DNA of 32,000 nt from Pseudodesulfovibrio mercurii (GTDB lineage: Bacteria > Desulfobacterota > Desulfovibrionia > Desulfovibrionales > Desulfovibrionaceae). How positions within the stretch are numbered: position 1 is the stretch's first letter; every line of letters begins with the position of its first letter. Below the pieces are notes generated by a model. It saw only the letters and a program-made list of their open reading frames with translations. It had not been told where the DNA came from and did no database searches. The position numbers were made by a program, and so were the translations under genes. Of the stretch, positions 7,394-15,637 are shown one piece after another. The stretch lies in the NCBI RefSeq assembly GCF_000189295.2, contig NC_016803.1, positions 2,010,001 through 2,042,000 of the forward strand, given 5' to 3'.

Positions 7394-8818
7394 TCAGACG
7401 GTCAGGGAGCCGACGAGCAGGACCGTGCCGAGCAGGCAGATGGCGGCGGCCCCGCACAGGGACAGTCCGGCGTGAAGGACGTTGAACAGGCGGCGGTTGC
7501 GGCCGGACAGGGTCAGGGCGGCCTTGCGGGCCGAGACCGCGAACCAGGCGAACAGGGTGGTGGTCAGCCCCATGCCCAGGGCCATGACCACCAGGGCGGC
7601 CAGGCCGGTCCAGAGGATGTTCAGGCCGATGGCGAAGGCCAGGATGACGGCCGCGCCCGGACAGGGGATCAGCCCGGTGACGAAGGACACGGCCAGGATG
7701 GAGCGCAGGTTTTCGCCCTCGGGTTCGGCGCGGGCGCAGGCGTCGGCCGCGAGGAGCCCGCCCCGGCGCAGGTCGAACACGGCCTTGACCAGGAGGAACA
7801 GCCCCATGAGGGCGAGGAGCCCGTACCCGGCGGGCTGGATGGCCCGGCTGGCGGCCGCGAACCCGCCCATGCCCGTGGAGAACACGAGATAGGCCGCGCC
7901 CACGGCCAGCACGGCCGAGCCCATATGCACGAAGGTGATGGCGTTGCCCATGAGCGCGCCGGTCATGAGCGATCCGGGGCGGCTCAGGAACCAGGAGCAG
8001 ACCACGGCCTTGCCGTGCCCCGGCCCCACGGCGTGGACCACCCCGTAGACGAAGGACAGCCCCAGGAACATCCACAGGGCCGGGCCCCACGGGTCGTCCG
8101 CAAGTTGGACTCCGAAGGCGTCGAGCCGCGCGGTCAGCGCCTTCTGGGCGGACCGGACCAAGCCCATAAACCGGGCGAGGAGGCCGGGCTCGTCCGTTTC
8201 CCCTTCCGCCACGGCGGGGGACGCGCCGGGGATCGCGCTCACGGACAGGTGCACGGCGTCGGGCACGATATAGCGCCAGTAGGTCTGGTCCCTGGCCGGG
8301 CGCATGGCGTGGCTGACCGCGATGCCGCCCTGGACGTCGAAGCGCACGCCGTTCTCGGCGTAGATCATGTCCGTATAATAGTCCCTGTCGAACACGGCCA
8401 TGCGGAAGTCGGCCAGCCGGTCCACGGGCAGGTCGAGGGGCACGTCGAAGTCGTAGACGAAGCGGTTGCCCTTCAGCCCGGCCCGGAAGTGCTCCACCCG
8501 GACCGGCAGCCGCTCGCCCCCGGCCTCGACCAGGGTGAAATAGTGGTAGTTGGACAGGTACTGGAAGGCCCCGTCGCGCACGGCCGCCTGGCCCTGGGGC
8601 GTGGCCAGGGAGGCCGCGTCCAGGCCCAGGTCGCTCAGGATGGCCCGGGTGAACATCTCGTCGAAGAGCCAGCTCTGGTGCACGCCCGACAGCCCGGCGT
8701 CGTCCAGGCGGAAGGTCAGGGACACGTCCACGTAGACGTGCGGGTGGGCTTCGGCCCGGTCCGGGGCCAGGGCCGGACAACACAGGCTCGCCAGGAGAAG
8801 GATGATGATCGTGCGCAT
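7394..8818 (-). CDS. Fusion protein: periplasmic DUF1007-like domain + NicO/RcnA-like nickel/cobalt transporter permease
   Basis: I take the start at the internal ATG (comp. 8816-8818), giving the signal peptide MRTIIILLLASLCCPALA. AHPHVYVDVSLTF opens a DUF1007-type domain of about 240 aa. A multi-TM domain follows, with the HAVGPGHGK and PCPGA motifs typical of COG2215 NicO-type transporters. There is one uninterrupted frame. Confidence 0.8.
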   Translation of the reverse strand: MRTIIILLLASLCCPALAPDRAEAHPHVYVDVSLTFRLDDAGLSGVHQSWLFDEMFTRAILSDLGLDAASLATPQGQAAVRDGAFQYLSNYHYFTLVEAGGERLPVRVEHFRAGLKGNRFVYDFDVPLDLPVDRLADFRMAVFDRDYYTDMIYAENGVRFDVQGGIAVSHAMRPARDQTYWRYIVPDAVHLSVSAIPGASPAVAEGETDEPGLLARFMGLVRSAQKALTARLDAFGVQLADDPWGPALWMFLGLSFVYGVVHAVGPGHGKAVVCSWFLSRPGSLMTGALMGNAITFVHMGSAVLAVGAAYLVFSTGMGGFAAASRAIQPAGYGLLALMGLFLLVKAVFDLRRGGLLAADACARAEPEGENLRSILAVSFVTGLIPCPGAAVILAFAIGLNILWTGLAALVVMALGMGLTTTLFAWFAVSARKAALTLSGRNRRLFNVLHAGLSLCGAAAICLLGTVLLVGSLTV

Positions 8819-8893
8819 GGTCGGTTCCGGCACAGATAAGGGAGAGCCGGGAAGATGGCAAGCCCGTTTCCCGGCGGAAACGCCCGCAGCACG

Positions 8894-8922
8894 TTGCTTT
8901 TTCGGGAAATGCGTTCTAAATT
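8894..8922 (+). promoter_or_regulatory. Possible sigma70 promoter placing the TSS at or next to the ATG of the SBP gene (leaderless candidate)
   Basis: TTGCTT (8894-8899), a 17 nt spacer, TAAATT (8917-8922), then gcgcc and ATG at 8928. No Shine-Dalgarno sequence is visible. Confidence 0.3.
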
Positions 8923-8927
8923 GCGCC

Positions 8928-9680
8928 ATGTTCCGCGATTCGGCACGTATCTCCCATCAACCGCCCCTGCTGCTCTGTTTCCTGTGGTTCCTGCTGGCCC
9001 TCCCGGTCCCGGCCCAGGCCCAGGCCCTGCGGCTGCGCATCGCGACCCTGGAGCTGGGCGCGTGCGGGCACCTGGAAAAGGGTCGCCCGGTCGGGTTCTG
9101 TTACGAACTCGGCGAGATCCTGGCCCGTGCGGCGGGCATGGAGCCGGTCAACCATCTCGTGCCCCTGGCCAGGGGGCTGGACGAGATCGCCTCGGGCGCG
9201 GCGGACATGATCATCATGCCGCCGGAAGCGGACATCGCCGACCTGGCCGAGGACATCGGCCGGGTCAAGCCCGTGACCATGGTGGCCTGGGCGCGGGTGG
9301 AGACCCCCCTGCGCGACGTCCGCGACCTGGGCGGCAAGACCGTGGCCGTGATCCGGGGCTCGCGGCACGAGCTGGACCAGGCCAAAAAGTTCAAGTTCAT
9401 CCCCTTCCCGTGCAAGAACCACGAGCTCGGCTTCAAGATGCTCATGGCCGGGCGCGTGGACGCCGTGCTCGGCCCGCTCCAGGGGCTGACCGCCGAGGCC
9501 GGGCGGCTGGGCCTGCGCCGCCGCTTCCTGGGAGAGCCGCTGGTCCTGGGACGGGACGACATGCGCGTCTATGCGTCCAGGCGGCTGCCCGAGGACGTGC
9601 GCGGCCGCCTGAAGGCGGCCCTGGACCGGCTCATCGAGGACGGGAGCGTGGCCCGGCTGCGGGACAAGTACCCCCTATAA
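8928..9680 (+). CDS. Periplasmic solute-binding protein, family 3 (amino-acid-ABC-like SBP domain)
   Basis: Starting at ATG 8928 gives the signal peptide ..LLLCFLWFLLALPVPAQAQA. The body (..IASGAADMIIMPP.., GKTVAVIRGS.., LMAGRVDAVLGP) resembles SBP_bac_3. It lies directly upstream of a sensor kinase. Confidence 0.75.
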   Translation: MFRDSARISHQPPLLLCFLWFLLALPVPAQAQALRLRIATLELGACGHLEKGRPVGFCYELGEILARAAGMEPVNHLVPLARGLDEIASGAADMIIMPPEADIADLAEDIGRVKPVTMVAWARVETPLRDVRDLGGKTVAVIRGSRHELDQAKKFKFIPFPCKNHELGFKMLMAGRVDAVLGPLQGLTAEAGRLGLRRRFLGEPLVLGRDDMRVYASRRLPEDVRGRLKAALDRLIEDGSVARLRDKYPL

Positions 9681-9772
9681 CCGTGATGACAGGGTGCGGT
9701 GAGTCGTGTACAGGCTGTCGGGAGGATGCACGATTCGGGAGCCCCCTTCCCCCCATTTTTTCCGGAAAGCAG

Positions 9773-11704
9773 ATGCGAGCAGACAACCCCAAGAGAAAAC
9801 GGCCTCTCCTGACCAGCAGGTCCATCTCGCGGGACCTGACCTTCAGCCTGGTGGTCATCGTCATGATCATCGCCACGGCCCTCGGCGGGTTCATCTACTG
9901 GCAGCAGTCCCAGGAGATGTGGGCCACGGCCGAGAAAAAGGGCGAGGACACCATCTCCTCGGTGGCCGAAATCCTGGCCGTGCCCATCTGGAACCTGGAC
10001 TACGACAACGCCCGGCTCATCGGCTCGGTCTACACCCACGACGACATGGTCCAGGGCATCCGCATCTACGGCTCGCGCAACGAGGTGGTCTTCGCCCACG
10101 AGAAGTTCTCGGGCACGCCCGCGGACTTCAGCCAGGTCCGGCCCATCGTCTTCGAGGGCCGCACCATCGGCCGGGCCGAGATCGACTTCACCCTGGAGCG
10201 CGAGAAGAAGCGCCTGGACGAACAGATGTTCGTCTCGATCATCATCATCGTGGTCTCCATCTCCGTCATCCTGGCCATCACCGGCCTGCTCCTGCGCGTC
10301 TTCCTGAACAAGCCGCTCATGGTCCTCCAGTCCGGCATCGCCCGCGTGGCCAAAGGCGACTTCTCCTACGACTTCGGCGAGGTCTACCACGCGGAACTGC
10401 TGGAGATCGCCAAGCGATTCCGGCGCATGTCCATCGAGATCGAGGGCCGCGAGAACAAGCTCCAGACCATGAACAAGACCCTCCAGGAAGCGGAGGAGAA
10501 ATACCGGTCCATCTTCGAGAACGCCATCGAGGGCATCTTCCAGGCCACCCCGGACGGCGTGCTTCGCCGGGCCAACCCGGCCATGGCCCGCATCTTCGGC
10601 TACGACTCCCTGGACGAGTTCCTGTCCAACGTCCGCTCCCTGAGCTCCCGGATCATGGTCAACCCGGACCACATGCAAGGGTTCTTCGACCGCGTGCGCG
10701 ACCAGGGCGAGGTCAAGCGGTTCGAGGCCGAGTACTACCGCCGCGACGGCAAGACCATCTGGGGCTCCCTCAACGCCCGGGCCATCCACGACGAGCGGGG
10801 CAACTTCGTGTTCGTGGACGGCATCCTCGAGGACATCACCGACCGCAAGAAGGCCGAGCAGGACCTGGCCGACCTGAACCGCCACCTGGAACAGTTGGTC
10901 CGCGAGCGCACCGAGGACCTGGTCAACAAGGCCCGCGAGCTGGAGGAGGCCAACCAGCGGCTGCGCGAACTGGACGAGATGAAGTCCGCCTTCCTCTCCT
11001 CGGTCTCCCACGAGCTGCGCACACCCCTGACCTCCATCCTGGGCTTCGCCAAACTCCTGAACAAGGAGTTCACGCGCAACTTCCTGCCCCTGGTCAGCCC
11101 GGAAGGCGCCCTGGCGCGCAAGGGCAAGCGCATCCGCGAGAACCTGGCCATCATCAGCCACGAGGGCGAACGGTTGACCCGGCTGATCAACGACGTCCTC
11201 GACCTGAACAAGATCGAGTCCGGCTCCATGGGCTGGCGCGACGAGGAGCTGGACATGAACGAGGTCATCGAGGTGGCCGCCAGTTCGGTCTCGGGCATGT
11301 TCGCCCAGACCACCCTGGAGCTGCGCACCGAGATCCAGCCGGGCCTGCCGCACATTGTGGCCGACCGCGACCGCATGCAGCAGGTGCTCATCAACCTGCT
11401 CAACAACGCCTCCAAGTTCACGGAAAAGGGCTCGGTCACCCTGCGCGCCTTCCCGCGCTTCAGCCAGCTGCGCGTGGAGGTGGTGGACACCGGCACCGGC
11501 ATCCACCCCGAGGACCAGTCCCAGATCTTCGAGAAGTTCCACCAGACCCACACCGACGACACCATGGTCAACAAGCCCAAGGGCACCGGCCTGGGCCTGA
11601 CCATCTGCCGCGAGATCATCGAGCACTACGGCGGCCGCATCTGGGTCGAGTCCGAAGTCGGCGTAGGCTCCACCTTCATATTTACTTTGCCTGCGATGCA
11701 ATAA
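9773..11704 (+). CDS. Sensor histidine kinase (2 TM, HAMP, PAS/PAC, HisKA, HATPase_c)
   Basis: I take the start at ATG 9773. There are two TM segments. The HAMP is LNKPLMVLQSGIARVAKGDF, the PAS is YRSIFENAIEGIFQATPDG.., the H-box is FLSSVSHELRTPLTSI, and the N/G boxes are LINLLNNASKFT and GTGLGLTICREIIEHYGGRIWVES. Confidence 0.92.
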   Translation: MRADNPKRKRPLLTSRSISRDLTFSLVVIVMIIATALGGFIYWQQSQEMWATAEKKGEDTISSVAEILAVPIWNLDYDNARLIGSVYTHDDMVQGIRIYGSRNEVVFAHEKFSGTPADFSQVRPIVFEGRTIGRAEIDFTLEREKKRLDEQMFVSIIIIVVSISVILAITGLLLRVFLNKPLMVLQSGIARVAKGDFSYDFGEVYHAELLEIAKRFRRMSIEIEGRENKLQTMNKTLQEAEEKYRSIFENAIEGIFQATPDGVLRRANPAMARIFGYDSLDEFLSNVRSLSSRIMVNPDHMQGFFDRVRDQGEVKRFEAEYYRRDGKTIWGSLNARAIHDERGNFVFVDGILEDITDRKKAEQDLADLNRHLEQLVRERTEDLVNKARELEEANQRLRELDEMKSAFLSSVSHELRTPLTSILGFAKLLNKEFTRNFLPLVSPEGALARKGKRIRENLAIISHEGERLTRLINDVLDLNKIESGSMGWRDEELDMNEVIEVAASSVSGMFAQTTLELRTEIQPGLPHIVADRDRMQQVLINLLNNASKFTEKGSVTLRAFPRFSQLRVEVVDTGTGIHPEDQSQIFEKFHQTHTDDTMVNKPKGTGLGLTICREIIEHYGGRIWVESEVGVGSTFIFTLPAMQ

Positions 11705-11731
11705 GCGGCTTCCGATAGCGGCGCATCTGCA

Positions 11732-11799
11732 CATTTTTTCCGGCCGGGCCAATCCTCACGTAGACGGCTACGCTGCGGTTGGCCCGACCGGAAAAAATG
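11732..11799. repeat. Long imperfect hairpin / inverted repeat downstream of the kinase gene
   Basis: 11732-11752 (cattttttccggccgggccaa) pairs with 11779-11799 (ttggcccgaccggaaaaaatg), 21 bp with one mismatch. The 26-nt loop contains a 5-bp sub-stem (cgtag/ctacg). Confidence 0.8.
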
Positions 11800-11977
11800 C
11801 ACAGCTACACCACTCTCGACAAATCCGCAGGACAGCGGATTTGGACGTTGCGGTCTTTCCGCAACGCCCCGAAGGGGTGAGCCCCAGGACGGGGCGAATC
11901 AAAGCCTAGTGCGCGCACGGGAGAGAGAGCCGCTGTCGGGTGCTGCGCACCCGAATCGCTCCAAAGAGGTAAGACAG

Positions 11978-12015
11978 GGCCTTCGACTCTATGTTGAGTC
12001 GGAGGCCTTTTTGTT
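11978..12015 (+). terminator. Strong rho-independent terminator with no obvious upstream gene
   Basis: GGCCTTCGACTC-tatgtt-GAGTCGGAGGCC forms a 12 bp stem with one G.U pair, followed by TTTTTGTT. The nearest upstream plus-strand CDS ends 270 nt earlier. Confidence 0.7.
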
Positions 12016-12219
12016 GGGGGTGCCCACCCCGCGAAGCTGCGACAAAAAGCTTGAAGGGGGTCCAGGGGGCATCCCCGCATCCTGTCAAGTTGCTTTTTTA
12101 TGCTTATCGGGCGCTTTTGGGCGTCATTCTTCAACAAAACAGGGTGTTGGCGAAAACCGGGGGTATGCTGGTTCGGATTCCCGGGGATGGGCCTCGGGGA
12201 CGAAGCCAGAGAGGTTGCC

Positions 12220-13590
12220 ATGGCAGCACCGTATATGTGTGAGACGAGGCGCGGCCCGGACGGGCGCATTGTGGAGAAAACCGAGACCGTCAGGGGGCGG
12301 AAGTCCGTCTGGGCCTACGCCTATGACGGGGACGGACGGCTGACCGAGGCCAAACTGGACGGGCGGGTCATCTGCCAGTGCTGGTACGACCGGGAGGGCC
12401 GCCGGGTGCGGGACTATCTGCCCGCCACGGCCGGGGCGAATTATCGGGATTACCAGTATACTCAGGACAACCGGCTGATGCGCGCCGGGTCCGGGCAGTA
12501 TTCCCACGACGAGCGCGGCTTCCGGTCCATCTGGTCGGACAGGGGCGTGTACACCCTGTACGAGTACAGCCCGGACTACCGGCTGCTCAAGGCCGAGGAG
12601 GAGGGCCGGAACAAGGCCTTGACCTTTGACCACGACGATGACGGGCGGCGCTCGGCCAAGTACCTGAACGGGCAGTTGGTCGAGGCCTACCGGTGGCTCG
12701 ACTTCGTGCGTCTGGCCGCGTTCCACGACGGGCGGCACGGTTACGAGTTCGCCTACCGCGAGGGCGAGCGCACGCCCTACGCCATGCGCCGGGACGACGG
12801 GACCGTGGCCGGGCTCTTATATGACCAGGTCGGCTCCCTGCGCGTGGTTGCCGACGTGGACGGAAACGTGATAAAGGAGGTCCTGTACGATCCCTTCGGC
12901 GGGATCATCGAGGACACCAACCCGAGCCTGCGCCTGCCCATCGGCTTCGCGGGCGGCCTCCACGACCGGGACCTGGGGTTCGTCCGCTTCGGCTGGCGCG
13001 ACTATGACGTCAGGACCGGCCGCTGGACCGCGCCCGACCCCATCGGGGACAAGGGCGGCGACCCGGACTGGTACGGGTATTGTCTGGACGACCCGGTGAA
13101 CATGCATGACCCCATGGGGTTGTTTGCTTGGATCCCGCTGGCAGGAGCCGCGATTGGTGCAGGCTCCAATGCCTATGACAATTGGGATGATTGGAGAAGC
13201 GGCAAGATGAGCACAGGCGACTATGCCACATCCGTTGGCCTGGGAGCTGTAACCGGCGCAGTGAGCACCATGGGCGGGGGTATAGGTTCAACCCTTCTGC
13301 TTGGTGGCGGCTCTGCCGCCTTGAACGAAGTTGGGAACCAGTACATCAGGACAGGCAAAGTCGATGATGTTGGGAAAGTTGCTGCAGCTGCTGGGAGCGG
13401 AGTAATCGGAGGGGCTGCCGGGAAGATCGGCAAGAGCGTCGGAAAGAACTTCGGCAGGATTACACCTTCCATGACGATCCCCCCCAAACCCCTCAAGGAT
13501 GCGAGCAATCTTGGAAGTGTTGTGAGTTCAACTGTCGGCACGGAGATGACTGACGACTGGCTCAACAAGGCTTTGGACAAGCAAAAATAA
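12220..13590 (+). CDS. Short Rhs/YD-repeat protein: YD repeats + RHS core tip (DPxGL) + glycine-zipper C-terminal (toxin-like) domain
   Basis: I take the start at ATG 12220, with GAGAGG 5 nt upstream. YD repeats are YAYDGDGRLTEA, WYDREGRRV, YQYTQDNRLMRA and FDHDDDGRRSAK. The core tip is GFAGGLHDRDLGFVRFGWRDYDVRTGRWTAPDPIGDKGGDPDWYGYCLDDPVNMHDPMGL and ends at 13122. The tail 13123-13587 is rich in GxxxG (GAAIGAG, GLGAVTGAVSTMGGGIGSTLLLGGG, GSGVIGGAAGKIG). Confidence 0.85.
   Translation: MAAPYMCETRRGPDGRIVEKTETVRGRKSVWAYAYDGDGRLTEAKLDGRVICQCWYDREGRRVRDYLPATAGANYRDYQYTQDNRLMRAGSGQYSHDERGFRSIWSDRGVYTLYEYSPDYRLLKAEEEGRNKALTFDHDDDGRRSAKYLNGQLVEAYRWLDFVRLAAFHDGRHGYEFAYREGERTPYAMRRDDGTVAGLLYDQVGSLRVVADVDGNVIKEVLYDPFGGIIEDTNPSLRLPIGFAGGLHDRDLGFVRFGWRDYDVRTGRWTAPDPIGDKGGDPDWYGYCLDDPVNMHDPMGLFAWIPLAGAAIGAGSNAYDNWDDWRSGKMSTGDYATSVGLGAVTGAVSTMGGGIGSTLLLGGGSAALNEVGNQYIRTGKVDDVGKVAAAAGSGVIGGAAGKIGKSVGKNFGRITPSMTIPPKPLKDASNLGSVVSSTVGTEMTDDWLNKALDKQK
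12912..13101 (+). repeat. Core-tip direct repeat, copy 1 (inside the main Rhs gene)
   Basis: 190 bp, roughly 96 percent identical by eye to 13902-14091. Its distal 162 bp match 14771-14932. Confidence 0.9.
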
Positions 13591-13598
13591 GGAAAGTG

Positions 13599-13826
13599 AT
13601 GTTAGGCATTGTCTTCATGTTTGTTGCAGGTGCAGTATGCATCATTGGCGGGTTATTTTTGATCCGAGAATGGTACTATACCCGGCATACAGACCTTCGC
13701 CCATTTTCATGGAAACGTTGGTTCAACAGAGATGAAGGGCTGAACCCCCTTGAAAAGCTTGTCAACGGAATAATAGGTATAATCATTGGTGCATTTGCGA
13801 CGTTGATCTTCCTGTCTTCCTTGTAG
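13599..13826 (+). CDS. Small 2-TM membrane protein, putative immunity protein for the preceding C-terminal domain
   Basis: 75 aa (ATG 13599; a GTG lies at 13596), starting 9 nt after the Rhs stop. TM1 is GIVFMFVAGAVCIIGGLFLI and TM2 is LVNGIIGIIIGAFATLIFLSSL. G+C is markedly lower than the surroundings. The function is inferred from position only. Confidence 0.55.
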   Translation: MLGIVFMFVAGAVCIIGGLFLIREWYYTRHTDLRPFSWKRWFNRDEGLNPLEKLVNGIIGIIIGAFATLIFLSSL

Positions 13827-13836
13827 ACTCACCGAT

Positions 13837-13874
13837 ACGCCCGAGGAAAAAGCCTCGGGCGTGTTTGATTTGTT
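13837..13874 (+). terminator. Rho-independent terminator closing cassette 1
   Basis: ACGCCCGAGG-aaaaag-CCTCGGGCGT followed by GTTTGATTTGTT. Confidence 0.7.
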
Positions 13875-14520
13875 GTGGCGAGTGTCGGGCGGAATTTTAG
13901 CGGACACCAACCCGAGCCTGCGCCTGCCCCTCGGCTTTGCGGGCGGCCTGCACGACCGGGACCTGGGCTTCGTCCGCTTCGGCTGGCGCGACTATGACGT
14001 CAGGACCGGCCGCTGGACCGCGCCCGACCCTATCGGCGACAAGGGCGGCGACCCGGACTGGTACGGGTATTGTCTGGACGACCCGGTGAACGGGGTTGAT
14101 CCGGCGGGGTTGGAAGGCGGGTTTTGGGATGGGGTCAAGAAAATCGGAGCGGGCTTCGGCAAGCTGTGGGACAAGGCCCCGGCCGGTATCGGTGAGGCCG
14201 TTACCAAGGGCGTGAAGGGGGCTGGCAAGGCATTGAGCAAAACGGCGGACGCCTTTGCCACCAACAAGGATTTGCAAAAATATACGGCGATCGCCTTAGG
14301 TGCGGGGGCTCTCCCCATCGTGGCGGCGACAGGCTCGGCAGTGGTGCCGGCGGCCATCGGAGCCGCCATGCAGCACCCGGACACGCTCGCAACCATGTCA
14401 AAAGCGACTGTCGATTTTGCGAATGGATACTTCGACGAAGGCCCGCCGCCGCCTTCCTGGCCCGGCTATCTCGGAGGGCTACTCGGAAAAGCGAAAGATA
14501 TCCACAAGAAAAAGAAGTGA
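13861..14520 (+). CDS. Orphan Rhs core-tip fragment fused to alternative C-terminal domain (CT2); probably not independently translated
   Basis: The frame reads ..DTNPSLRLPLGFAGGLHDRDLGFVRFGWRDYDVRTGRWTAPDPIGDKGGDPDWYGYCLDDPVNGVDPAGL, then a 135-aa Gly/Ala/Lys-rich tail (14113-14517) with the hydrophobic stretch YTAIALGAGALPIVAATGSAVVPAAIGAAM. The only start is GTG 13861, which lies inside the T-tract of the preceding terminator and has no RBS. Confidence 0.7.
   Translation: MFDLLWRVSGGILADTNPSLRLPLGFAGGLHDRDLGFVRFGWRDYDVRTGRWTAPDPIGDKGGDPDWYGYCLDDPVNGVDPAGLEGGFWDGVKKIGAGFGKLWDKAPAGIGEAVTKGVKGAGKALSKTADAFATNKDLQKYTAIALGAGALPIVAATGSAVVPAAIGAAMQHPDTLATMSKATVDFANGYFDEGPPPPSWPGYLGGLLGKAKDIHKKKK
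13902..14091 (+). repeat. Core-tip direct repeat, copy 2
   Basis: It aligns base for base with 12912-13101 at an offset of 990, with about 7 mismatches. Confidence 0.9.
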
Positions 14521-14522
14521 TT

Positions 14523-14720
14523 ATGAGAGTAAAACCGGTGGAAATGGTGCTGAGTGCCGCGATGATAGTAACAAGCCTGCTGAGCATAACGAATGATTAT
14601 TCCTACTTTAAGGGATTTCCCGTATACTCCTGGGTTGAATACATTATTCTGGGGGGAGGTGTGTTGATCCCCGTCCTGGCTTGGTTCCTCCGGTCACCAA
14701 CTCGGAATAAACAAAAATAA
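14523..14720 (+). CDS. Small 2-TM membrane protein, putative immunity protein for CT2
   Basis: 65 aa from ATG 14523, 2 nt after the CT2 stop (the track uses GTG 14517). It reads MRVKPVEMVLSAAMIVTSLLSI...WVEYIILGGGVLIPVLAWFLRSP. It is a paralogue of the ORF at 15352-15555, sharing the MRVK start and the P.LAW(F/Y)LR.P motif. Confidence 0.55.
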   Translation: MRVKPVEMVLSAAMIVTSLLSITNDYSYFKGFPVYSWVEYIILGGGVLIPVLAWFLRSPTRNKQK

Positions 14721-14726
14721 CGGTAG

Positions 14727-14764
14727 GAAACGCCCTGGGAACCATATTTCCAGGGCGTTTCTTC
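14727..14764 (+). terminator. Stem-loop / weak terminator closing cassette 2
   Basis: GAAACGCCCTGG-gaaccatattt-CCAGGGCGTTTC forms a 12 bp stem followed by TTC. The T-tract is only partial. Confidence 0.5.
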
Positions 14765-14770
14765 ACCCCT

Positions 14771-14932
14771 ATCGGCTTCGCGGGCGGCCTGCACGACCGG
14801 GACCTGGGCTTCGTCCGCTTCGGCTGGCGGGATTACGACGTCAGGACCGGCAAATGGTCCGCGCCGGACCCCATCGGGGACAAGGGCGGCGACCCGGACT
14901 GGTACGGGTATTGTCTGGACGACCCGGTGAAC
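14771..14932 (+). repeat. Core-tip direct repeat, copy 3 (5'-shortened)
   Basis: 162 bp matching 12940-13101 and 13930-14091. Similarity to cassette 2 continues to 15222 (cassette 2 coordinate 14381). Confidence 0.9.
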
Positions 14933-15355
14933 GGGGTTGATCCGGCGGGGTTGGAAGGCGGATTTTGGGATGGCGTGAAGAAAATCGAAGCGGGCTTCGG
15001 CAAGCTGTGGGACAAGGCCCCGGCCGGTATCGGTGAGGCCGTTACCAAGGGCGTGAAGGGGGCTGGCAAGGCATTGAGCAAAACGGCGGACGCCTTTGCC
15101 ACCAACAAGGATTTGCAAAAATATACGGCGATCGCCTTAGGTGCGGGGGCTCTCCCCATCGTGGCGGCGACAGGCTCGGCAGTGGTGCCGGCGGCCATCG
15201 GAGCCGCCATGCAGCATCCGGAAAGATTGGCTGTCGCGTCCAAGGCGGCAACTGATTTTGCAACCGGAGCGTTCGACCCAGGGCCTCCGCCGATGACCAA
15301 GGCGGGTATAGCCGGATACGCCGTGAACAAGGCCTATGAGTGGAGTAAACAATGA
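14771..15355 (+). CDS. Second orphan Rhs core-tip fragment fused to CT3 (chimeric relative of CT2); no start codon upstream of the homology
   Basis: The frame is open from 14711 with no ATG or GTG before IGFAGGLHDRDLGFVRFGWRDYDVRTGKWSAPDPIGDKGGDPDWYGYCLDDPVNGVDPAGL. The tail is 14954-15352. The track's start at 14927 is the Val codon of DPVNG. Confidence 0.7.
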   Translation: MGFAGGLHDRDLGFVRFGWRDYDVRTGKWSAPDPIGDKGGDPDWYGYCLDDPVNGVDPAGLEGGFWDGVKKIEAGFGKLWDKAPAGIGEAVTKGVKGAGKALSKTADAFATNKDLQKYTAIALGAGALPIVAATGSAVVPAAIGAAMQHPERLAVASKAATDFATGAFDPGPPPMTKAGIAGYAVNKAYEWSKQ

Positions 15356-15555
15356 GAGTGAAATTGTCTGAAATTCTGTTGGGGGAATTGCTTGTCGGAG
15401 TCGGTGCGTTGGAAATAGGCGCAGGCAAGGCTGGTGTATATGGCTACCCCCAACCCTTGTGGACGGCCTATCTCCTTGTCGCCATCGGCGTCGCACTCCC
15501 TTTGGTTGCTTGGTATTTGCGGCGGCCGCAGAAAGATGAGGACCAGACGGTTTAA
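15352..15555 (+). CDS. Small 2-TM membrane protein, putative immunity protein for CT3
   Basis: 67 aa. Its ATG overlaps the CT3 stop (ATGA). It reads MRVKLSEILLGELLVGVGALEIGAG...LWTAYLLVAIGVALPLVAWYLRRP. Confidence 0.55.
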   Translation: MRVKLSEILLGELLVGVGALEIGAGKAGVYGYPQPLWTAYLLVAIGVALPLVAWYLRRPQKDEDQTV

Positions 15556-15637
15556 CTGTTGGGCCACCCATTTGCCAAGGAATGGCCAGGTATTACCCGG
15601 CGGCAGAACGACGGCCCGGTCCAGGCTCGCCGCCCCG

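Follow-up and report, generated by a model that had tools for sequence, protein, structure and literature searches.

The window analyzed here, a stretch of 32,000 nucleotides (nt) of Pseudodesulfovibrio mercurii (NC_016803.1, forward strand, 2,010,001–2,042,000), contains a short Rhs gene at the head of an array of polymorphic toxin and immunity modules. Its open reading frame (ORF; 12220–13590, +) encodes a 456-aa product identical to the "YD repeat protein" annotated in P. mercurii, and we refer to this protein and its short relatives as mini-Rhs. The protein consists of a YD-repeat β-sheet (approximately 240 aa), an Rhs-associated core (approximately 60 aa), and a variable C-terminal toxin domain (CT). 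The coordinates of these parts and of the surrounding features are collected in Table 1, in which L numbers denote homologous loci; P numbers in the text denote homologous proteins.

The homology of mini-Rhs is beyond chance, with E-values as low as 0. The Pfam model TEN_YD-shell (PF25023, E = 1e-20) matches residues 29–273 at model positions 624–866 of 909, a coverage of approximately 30%, and the NCBIfam model Rhs_assc_core (TIGR03696, E = 5e-18) matches residues 223–301. The YD-repeat model PF05593, present in 47 of 78 family members, gives a weak match in the window protein (E = 0.002). The DPMGL motif occupies residues 297–301 (13108–13122); cleavage is predicted after L301, which places 301 aa up to the cleavage point. 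Profile searches against Pfam and NCBIfam found no PAAR or other domain before the first YD strand and no prePAAR, VgrG-binding or adaptor domain in the protein. A Kyte-Doolittle scan detected no hydrophobic segment before residue 298, and the N-terminus carries no signal peptide or transmembrane (TM) segment. The ATG at 12220 is preceded at 5 nt by a Shine-Dalgarno sequence (AGAGAGG). G+C content differs among the parts of the locus, being 0.67 in the shell, 0.57 in the CT, and 0.45–0.48 in the immunity genes.

Table 1 Features of the mini-Rhs locus (positions in the window; negative distances are relative to the ATG at 12220)
Feature	Position	Strand	Evidence or remark
Inverted-repeat element (TTTTTTCCGGCCGGGCCAA...TTGGCCCGACCGGAAAAAA), directly after histidine-kinase stop	11705–11817	.	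Near-identical copies in L001, L028
Variable island between histidine-kinase and RNase G flanks, holding the mini-Rhs array	11818–15627	+	blastn against L006, L010
E1, ~85-nt repeat, three hairpins, MITE/REP-like	11818–11905	+	Copies in other loci
Terminator-like hairpin with T run, upstream of cassette	11976–12009	+	
Conserved cassette leader	12081–12219	+	Paralog homology begins at 12081, 139 nt before ATG
Leader TGTCAA box	12083–12088	+	~−137
Leader GAAAACC box	12152–12158	+	~−68
Leader −10-like TATGCT (family TAnnCT)	12164–12169	+	−56
Leader hairpin (inner stem 12178–12200)	12168–12209	+	~−45 to −20
Leader Shine-Dalgarno sequence AGAGAGG	12208–12214	+	
YD-repeat β-sheet, mini-Rhs residues 1–240	12220–12939	+	PF25023, BiTLP alignment, AF2, dN/dS
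Rhs-associated core with aspartyl autoprotease residues	12940–13122	+	TIGR03696, BiTLP alignment, dN/dS
Catalytic codons R260; D273; D297	12997–12999; 13036–13038; 13108–13110	+	
CT1, 155-aa Gly/Ala-rich, weakly hydrophobic C-terminal toxin domain	13123–13590	+	G+C 0.57; imm1 homolog always follows
imm1, 76-aa two-TM protein, presumed CT1 immunity	13596–13826	+	Two hydrophobic segments; G+C 0.45
Terminator-like hairpin closing the mini-Rhs/imm1 unit, before orphan modules	13834–13865	+	
Orphan 1: core tip from ~residue 218 (13888–14112) and CT2, Gly/Ala-rich, one hydrophobic segment	13861–14520	+	
imm2, 67-aa two-TM protein	14517–14720	+	
Orphan 2: core tip from ~residue 240, no start codon before GTG 14927, and CT3	14768–15355	+	
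imm3, 67-aa two-TM protein, 31% identical to imm2	15352–15555	+	

The array is confined to a variable island. Homology with the flanks of the orthologous loci of P. karagichevae (L006) and D. caledoniensis (L010) stops at 11817 and resumes at 15628/15644 in blastn. Within the island, mini-Rhs is followed by a two-TM immunity gene, a terminator-like hairpin, and two orphan modules, each composed of a core tip, a CT and an immunity gene. The two downstream units (13861–14520 and 14768–15355) are orphans by definition, with ragged 5′ truncations and neither a start nor a promoter of their own, whereas the main gene has a fixed start and a conserved leader and stands at the head of the array. Apart from its C-terminal tail, CT3 shares 81–87% identity with CT2, and elsewhere CTs of the orphan type serve as the principal CT of complete mini-Rhs genes (e.g., L005, P0021, and P0045). 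The CT1–imm1 pair is kept in L018, L024, L027, and L033, and in several genomes each CT type is followed by its own small TM ORF. Matches in the CT1 homology search were confined to Pseudodesulfovibrio mini-Rhs proteins and orphan modules, and the search gave no lead from other delivery systems. In L013, three tandem two-TM ORFs of the imm2/imm3 type (11117–11774) lie without adjacent toxin domains, an immunity-only cluster as seen in other polymorphic toxin systems.

Probable shell origin, shared start and selection

Among solved structures, the best match of mini-Rhs is, by a wide margin, the teneurin-like protein (TLP) of Bacillus inaquosorum (BiTLP; E = 1.2e-37). Residues 15–301 align with BiTLP residues 1866–2144, and the alignment ends exactly at the cleavage site. 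Animal teneurins are next best. Type VI secretion system (T6SS) Rhs effectors and TcC match the core only (residues ~201–301, E = 1e-5 to 1e-2), with the exception of RhsP (residues 92–300). An exhaustive search of representatives retrieved relatives of 1100–3700 aa with 37–46% identity in Deferrisomatales, Desulfobacteraceae, and other metagenome-assembled genomes (MAGs). Mini-Rhs aligns with the last ~290 residues before their DPxGL motif, and its N-terminus (M..PY.C.L.RD..GRI.EKTE) corresponds to an internal landmark of these long proteins (..VNG...SW.LTRDNAGRI..KTE). When the 700 aa preceding the equivalent point in 14 long relatives were used as tblastn queries, no match was obtained in the window or in the Pseudodesulfovibrio flanks. 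Because the BiTLP shell has three sheet layers and the part of the shell model matched by mini-Rhs is its final ~30%, mini-Rhs is most simply interpreted as the third shell layer plus the core. Judging from these alignments, the family resembles the final layer of a long YD shell of the teneurin type that has been cut at a conserved landmark.

The AlphaFold2 (AF2) model computed from an alignment of 78 sequences has strands over residues 5–232, with a predicted local distance difference test (pLDDT) score of mostly 80–95, arranged as an open sheet. Confidence is below 40 in the core (242–316) and low in the CT helices. Foldseek gave teneurin and BiTLP shells as the best matches, with ~280 aligned columns against 1300–1900 residues. 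According to the model, a closed cocoon made by a single chain is not possible. The first-pass annotation of the locus had counted about 300 aa before DPxGL, had seen no signal peptide, PAAR region or TM segment at the N-terminus, and had judged the protein too short for an encapsulating shell; the profile searches, the hydropathy scan, the partial shell-model coverage, and the open sheet all agree. Its statement that nothing like VgrG, Hcp, Tss, TcA/TcB or a type V transporter lies in the 32 kb also stands, since the window contains none of these genes and no PAAR gene. The alignment with full-length homologs that it proposed as a check placed the N-terminus at the internal landmark described above.

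The protein search returned 399 homologs, and the details given here cover the best 120 of these. All 120 are 311–593 aa long. They come from a wide range of Pseudodesulfovibrio and Desulfovibrio species, and single genomes carry several, up to seven copies in one complete genome (D. caledoniensis). The same Met start is shared by 101 of the 120. Ten others carry 10–63 extra annotated residues, which fall within the open but non-coding leader, and the remaining nine are truncated orphans. The start is also the same in ~35 genomic copies, and relatives from Salidesulfovibrio and Humidesulfovibrio (42–54% identity) begin at the same point. In-frame stops are located 0–6 nt before the shared Met in homologous loci (L013 and L002), and a longer ORF from the in-frame ATG at 12100 was therefore rejected. 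Only short copies turned up when species-representative genomes were scanned with patterns that included the core-tip peptide DPDWYGYC.

Similarity among the family members ends sharply after DPxGL, and 27 CT families were distinguished among 119 proteins; the truncation points of the orphan core tips vary. Some of the CTs are Tlde1/YkuD domains, which act on peptidoglycan. The CT repertoire includes DUF6973, Ntox44, Tlde1/YkuD, and a strong match to serum amyloid A (PF00277, E = 1e-29), an unexpected toxin domain of eukaryotic type; coordinates for these domains are listed jointly as P0055 309–413, P0039/P0088 326–446, P0025 307–403, and P0127 711–785.

Nei-Gojobori estimates of the ratio of nonsynonymous to synonymous substitution rates (dN/dS) for residues 1–240 are ~0.2 in close pairs, with a median of 0.29 over 313 pairs, and dN/dS of the core is 0.09. 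R260, D273, and D297 are invariant in 78 sequences and align with R2103, D2116, and D2140 of BiTLP, the Arg and two Asp residues that drive autoproteolysis in that protein (PMC13018210). The copies at the two orthologous loci are decayed: that of P. karagichevae (L006 6001–6903) has a nonsense codon at position 165, and in that of D. caledoniensis (L010 6001–6732) the leader is missing together with codons 1–57. Intact mini-Rhs copies are present elsewhere in both species.

Leader, flanking elements and neighboring genes

The boxes of the cassette leader lie at a fixed distance from the ATG in ~30 loci, including L001 (9866–10000) and L002 (9866–10000). RNAalifold applied to the MAFFT alignment of the leader predicted no structure, and the hairpin was tested instead as a named structure. 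In this test, in which the structure was drawn from one of the sequences, 82% of cells were paired compared with 74% in shuffled alignments, covariation was 0.36 compared with 0.24, a score reached by none of 500 shuffles, and all slid registers scored lower. Assignment of the leader boxes to sigma-54 or to a canonical sigma-70 −35 element was rejected, because the spacing, judged by eye, is unsuitable and a consensus scan gave no sigma-70 site there. Rfam searches with the leader and with the repeat E1 gave nothing at the gathering threshold, only chance-level matches (E ~1–3). One homolog (P0049) is an ORF from the Trinity transcriptome of a Metopus contortus culture, a weak indication that family members are transcribed.

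Two repeats separate the upstream histidine kinase from the cassette. The inverted-repeat element is ~110 nt long with a 19-bp inverted repeat, and its copies in L001 (9281–9379, after glnA) and L028 (5505–5672) are also upstream of mini-Rhs, although in genomic surroundings other than those of the window. It belongs to the conserved flank in L006 and L010 and may be either a cassette boundary or a widespread terminator or repetitive extragenic palindromic (REP) sequence. Copies of E1 were found in L029 (6754–6816), L023 (7944–), L038 (1532–), L001 (11664–11781), L009 (3427–), and L031 (11207–11291), always 3′ of GAC/CAC, and stems 2 and 3 covary between copies. In L029, L023, L038, and L001, E1 interrupts the Rhs core at one and the same site, after the codon of D261 and before that of Y262, where the additional 82 nt cause a frameshift and a stop. 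E1 looks like a target-specific miniature inverted-repeat transposable element (MITE) or REP of the IS200/IS605 style that disables the autoprotease.

The other genes in the window encode HtpG, MerR, MauE, a Gly-zipper lipoprotein, an acyltransferase, alanine dehydrogenase (AlaDH), AsnC, DUF1007-NicO, a substrate-binding protein, two histidine kinases, RNase G, a radical SAM protein, TrmI, a PAS-GGDEF protein, a DsrMKJOP-like set, and FmdE. They are of the housekeeping or regulatory kind, and no component of a secretion system is among them. The gene for the Gly-zipper lipoprotein of the outer membrane (PF13488/PF13441; 3780–4334, −) is 8 kb upstream and, as far as tested, has no relation to the Gly-rich toxins. 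In another lineage, a distant short YD protein (P0231, 823 aa) also lies beside DUF1007-NicO and a large sensor kinase (L056 5273–10472, compared with 7394–13590 in the window), which may reflect coincidence or an old linkage. One MAG contains a mega-array of ~38 kb (contig JAEINO010000002.1, ~141–178 kb; L015/L024/L017/L031) with at least six full and many partial modules. The insertion has DUF1007-NicO on one side and AsnC/AlaDH on the other, which is also the synteny of the window, and its position suggests a regional hotspot.

All negative results on partners, T6SS genes and full-length acceptors refer to flanks of ±6–10 kb at ~55 loci, to one pattern scan of species representatives, and to the literature. 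All-versus-all clustering of the ORFs from 54 loci returned only the Rhs family, antisense shadows, immunity ORFs, and local synteny, with no other conserved neighbor. The recurring histidine kinases were rejected as linked partners, being unrelated paralogs at all but the two orthologous loci (L006 and L010). Inside the mega-array, directly upstream of a mini-Rhs gene, L017 (1559–5445) encodes an 852-aa ABC transporter with a C39-like domain and a 450-aa HlyD protein, preceded by an Asp/Gly-rich ORF. This type I secretion pair is the sole secretion machinery seen beside any copy. It was rejected as an export route because it recurs at no other locus, and it is probably unrelated to mini-Rhs. 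Sister short forms with N-terminal domains of 75–230 aa lie alone among housekeeping genes; none of these domains matches Pfam, and their neighborhoods contain no secretion genes. No relative was found in the viral contigs of IMG/VR, no PADLOC defense model matched, and the literature search returned nothing on Rhs or T6SS in Pseudodesulfovibrio or strain ND132.

Function, export and rival explanations

We consider it probable that the gene encodes an expressed, self-cleaving polymorphic toxin, a working member of a Desulfovibrionaceae family that is unable to enclose its cargo. This proposal builds on the architecture, conservation, selection, intact catalytic residues, toxin–immunity pairing, and array organization described above. 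Each mini-Rhs would comprise the last teneurin-type YD layer, the aspartyl-protease core, and a small variable toxin, and would be transcribed from its own conserved promoter and leader together with the two-TM immunity gene. The core would cut after L301 of the DPxGL motif and free the toxin, here presumably a Gly/Ala-rich membrane-active peptide that the two-TM protein would neutralize. Because the YD sheet is too small to enclose cargo, it may act as a self-cleaving carrier or docking module instead of a cocoon. New toxins would be swapped in by C-terminal displacement, leaving the two downstream CT/immunity modules as orphans, and the likely purpose is competition among related bacteria. 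Two observations argue that the toxin must leave the cytoplasm: the family contains Tlde1/YkuD CTs, and the hydrophobic C-terminal domain of BiTLP shows toxicity only after being directed to the periplasm (PMC13018210). Export would then depend on something encoded elsewhere, either a partner shell or a secretion system.

Several points weigh against this interpretation. Expression, cleavage, toxicity, and secretion of the window gene are all predictions from sequence, and the sole transcript evidence is the homolog P0049, which entered a eukaryotic transcriptome as a contaminant. Neither the window nor the flanks of the ~55 loci yielded an export route. Rhs effectors are reported to require the full β-cage for their export by the T6SS, and short Rhs proteins have been regarded as an unexpressed recombination stock (bioRxiv 10.1101/2024.02.26.582050). 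Given the low AF2 confidence of the core, it is uncertain that the protease folds correctly when no shell surrounds it. Furthermore, the decayed orthologous copies of the two sister species, which retain intact copies elsewhere, indicate fast turnover.

The first-pass annotation had left a choice between a 5′-truncated remnant, with the locus a fossil or archive, and a minimal YD/core module with another export route or partner. The first idea survives as an account of origin, since the family can have arisen by cutting a long YD shell, and is refuted as an account of the gene in its current state. The start is shared by the great majority of the homologs and across genera, the shell is under purifying selection, the catalytic residues are invariant, up to seven copies occur per genome, and the gene comes with a conserved leader of its own and, on the downstream side, a terminator-like hairpin and then its own orphan modules. 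A frameshifted longer gene, which that annotation named as an outcome that would overturn it, is excluded by the stops before the shared Met together with the empty tblastn search with long relatives; the other such outcome, an adjacent T6SS or PAAR partner, was found neither in the window nor near any fetched locus. The same evidence makes it very improbable that the gene is a long orphan whose only use is to supply recombination stock to a full-length Rhs encoded elsewhere, as short Rhs proteins are read in the preprint cited above. Some copies are indeed pseudogenes, and E1 insertions break a few cores. However, the start codon is fixed, the Shine-Dalgarno sequence and leader are conserved, the 240 aa outside the core are under purifying selection, the gene has downstream orphans with ragged 5′ ends of its own, and the core-tip scan of representative genomes gave only short copies, including the seven of one complete genome. 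The archive reading is thus largely refuted.

The remaining alternatives concern how, and whether, the toxin leaves the cell. Mini-Rhs could cap a two-part shell in which a separate protein provides the first two YD layers along with the plug and a domain for delivery, in the way that TcB complements TcC, with several interchangeable caps sharing one base. The start at a landmark inside long YD shells, which looks like a layer boundary, the disorder of the core when modeled on its own, the many paralogs per genome, which would suit a shared base, and the two-chain precedent of TcB–TcC (PDB 4igl and 4o9x) all fit such an arrangement. It is nevertheless unlikely: no candidate partner was found within 6–10 kb of the ~55 loci, although no search aimed at a shell-only partner was made; ~600 kb of flanks contain no shell-type sequence besides the mini-Rhs genes; and a survey of proteins combining FN-plug, NHL, and YD shell lists no Pseudodesulfovibrio, its sole Desulfovibrionaceae entry being Solidesulfovibrio fructosivorans. 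Loading onto a VgrG/PAAR spike encoded elsewhere, through the YD sheet or an adaptor, is a decidedly weak alternative. Rhs proteins are commonly T6SS cargo in the literature, and the Tlde1-type CT of some members is known from T6SS effectors. Against it, the protein lacks the PAAR, prePAAR, VgrG-binding, and adaptor domains searched for, no T6SS gene lies near any fetched locus, tssB is rare and species-specific in a survey of 2658 Desulfovibrio genomes, no paper was found that links Pseudodesulfovibrio with a T6SS, and the nearest structural relatives are Sec-exported teneurin-like proteins rather than T6SS Rhs proteins. Finally, there is only the slightest chance that mini-Rhs is not exported at all and works as an intracellular toxin–immunity system for addiction or abortive infection, in which autoproteolysis would free a membrane-depolarizing peptide in the producer upon loss of immunity. 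The lack of a detected export signal in mini-Rhs would agree with this, as would the hydrophobic CTs of the window and their immunities, which are inner-membrane proteins. Conversely, neither PADLOC models nor viral contigs gave a match, Tlde1/YkuD-type CTs would be inert in the cytoplasm, the hydrophobic BiTLP domain is toxic only in the periplasm, and orphan arrays with extra immunity genes are hallmarks of inter-strain warfare.

The exported, self-cleaving mini-Rhs toxin therefore remains our preferred explanation, and the minimal-module option of the first-pass annotation fits all of the findings, although it is unproved and neither a partner nor a secretion gene is found near the ~55 loci. 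The hundreds of members, the several copies per genome, the selection on the YD sheet, the intact protease, and the dedicated leader argue that the ~300 residues of shell and core are maintained as a functional unit. More tentatively, and with the balance of probability against it, we suggest that Rhs deployment can be independent of a cocoon: one YD layer plus the protease core may suffice as a self-cleaving pro-domain or docking handle, or several copies, or a cap with a shared base, may assemble a shell in trans. If true, many interchangeable toxin caps per genome would feed into one export device linked with neither T6SS, Tc, nor Sec.

Comparison with known systems

The mini-Rhs proteins share with Rhs polymorphic toxins the YD repeats, the PxxxxDPxGL core with an Arg and two Asp residues, and a variable CT followed by a gene predicted from its sequence to encode the immunity protein. 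They lack the closed β-cocoon (~700–1000 aa of YD repeats) and an N-terminal delivery determinant, two features considered essential in structural work. Structural work regards the closed YD cocoon as both defining and necessary for Rhs, Tc, and teneurin-like toxins. No paper found in the literature search describes the family. If our interpretation is confirmed, a minimal Rhs module would be defined, in which the autoproteolytic and carrier role is split from the encapsulation role, and an undescribed delivery route would be present in sulfate-reducing bacteria, a group whose interbacterial weapons have barely been studied. The family also offers a compact and tractable scaffold for establishing what an Rhs core needs to fold and cleave.

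The closest likeness is to BiTLP (PDB 9ifo/9pt5; PMC13018210), which has the PF25023 shell, the PxxxxDPxGL site, and the same R/D/D autoprotease residues. In both systems the CT is small (~15 kDa) and polymorphic, and the immunity gene is directly downstream; the CT of BiTLP is also a hydrophobic membrane-active peptide. TLPs differ in being at least ~2000 aa long; a signal peptide, adhesion/TIP domains, an FN-plug, and an NHL propeller accompany a full three-layer shell inside which the CT is hidden. Mini-Rhs corresponds to the last ~30% of such a shell with nothing in front of it, and without an FN-plug or NHL it is not a TLP.

The T6SS Rhs effectors RhsA, Tse15, RhsP, and Tre23-Rhs resemble mini-Rhs in their YD repeats, their aspartyl autoproteolysis core, and the position of the CT after DPxGL, as well as in the immunity genes and the orphan arrays formed through C-terminal displacement, and Tlde1-type CTs occur in some mini-Rhs proteins. 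In contrast to mini-Rhs, for which no T6SS context was found, they form a closed cocoon of ~1000 aa and carry a PAAR or VgrG-binding N-terminus. In the TcB–TcC complex, the TcC chain likewise gives only the C-terminal part of the cocoon, the core, and a hypervariable toxin, while the other chain gives the rest. However, TcC contributes ~680 aa and has adjacent TcB/TcA genes, and no TcA/TcB-like ORF occurs in the window or at the ~55 loci, so that mini-Rhs is not a TcC protein.

Short Rhs proteins have been noticed before and were dismissed as unexpressed stock (bioRxiv 10.1101/2024.02.26.582050). Like these proteins and the orphan rhs modules, mini-Rhs is short, has a partial YD region, and cannot envelop its effector. 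Orphan modules have ragged 5′ ends, possess neither a promoter nor a start of their own, and are presumed silent, whereas the main mini-Rhs gene has an N-terminus that is fixed across genera, a leader, and a YD region under selection.

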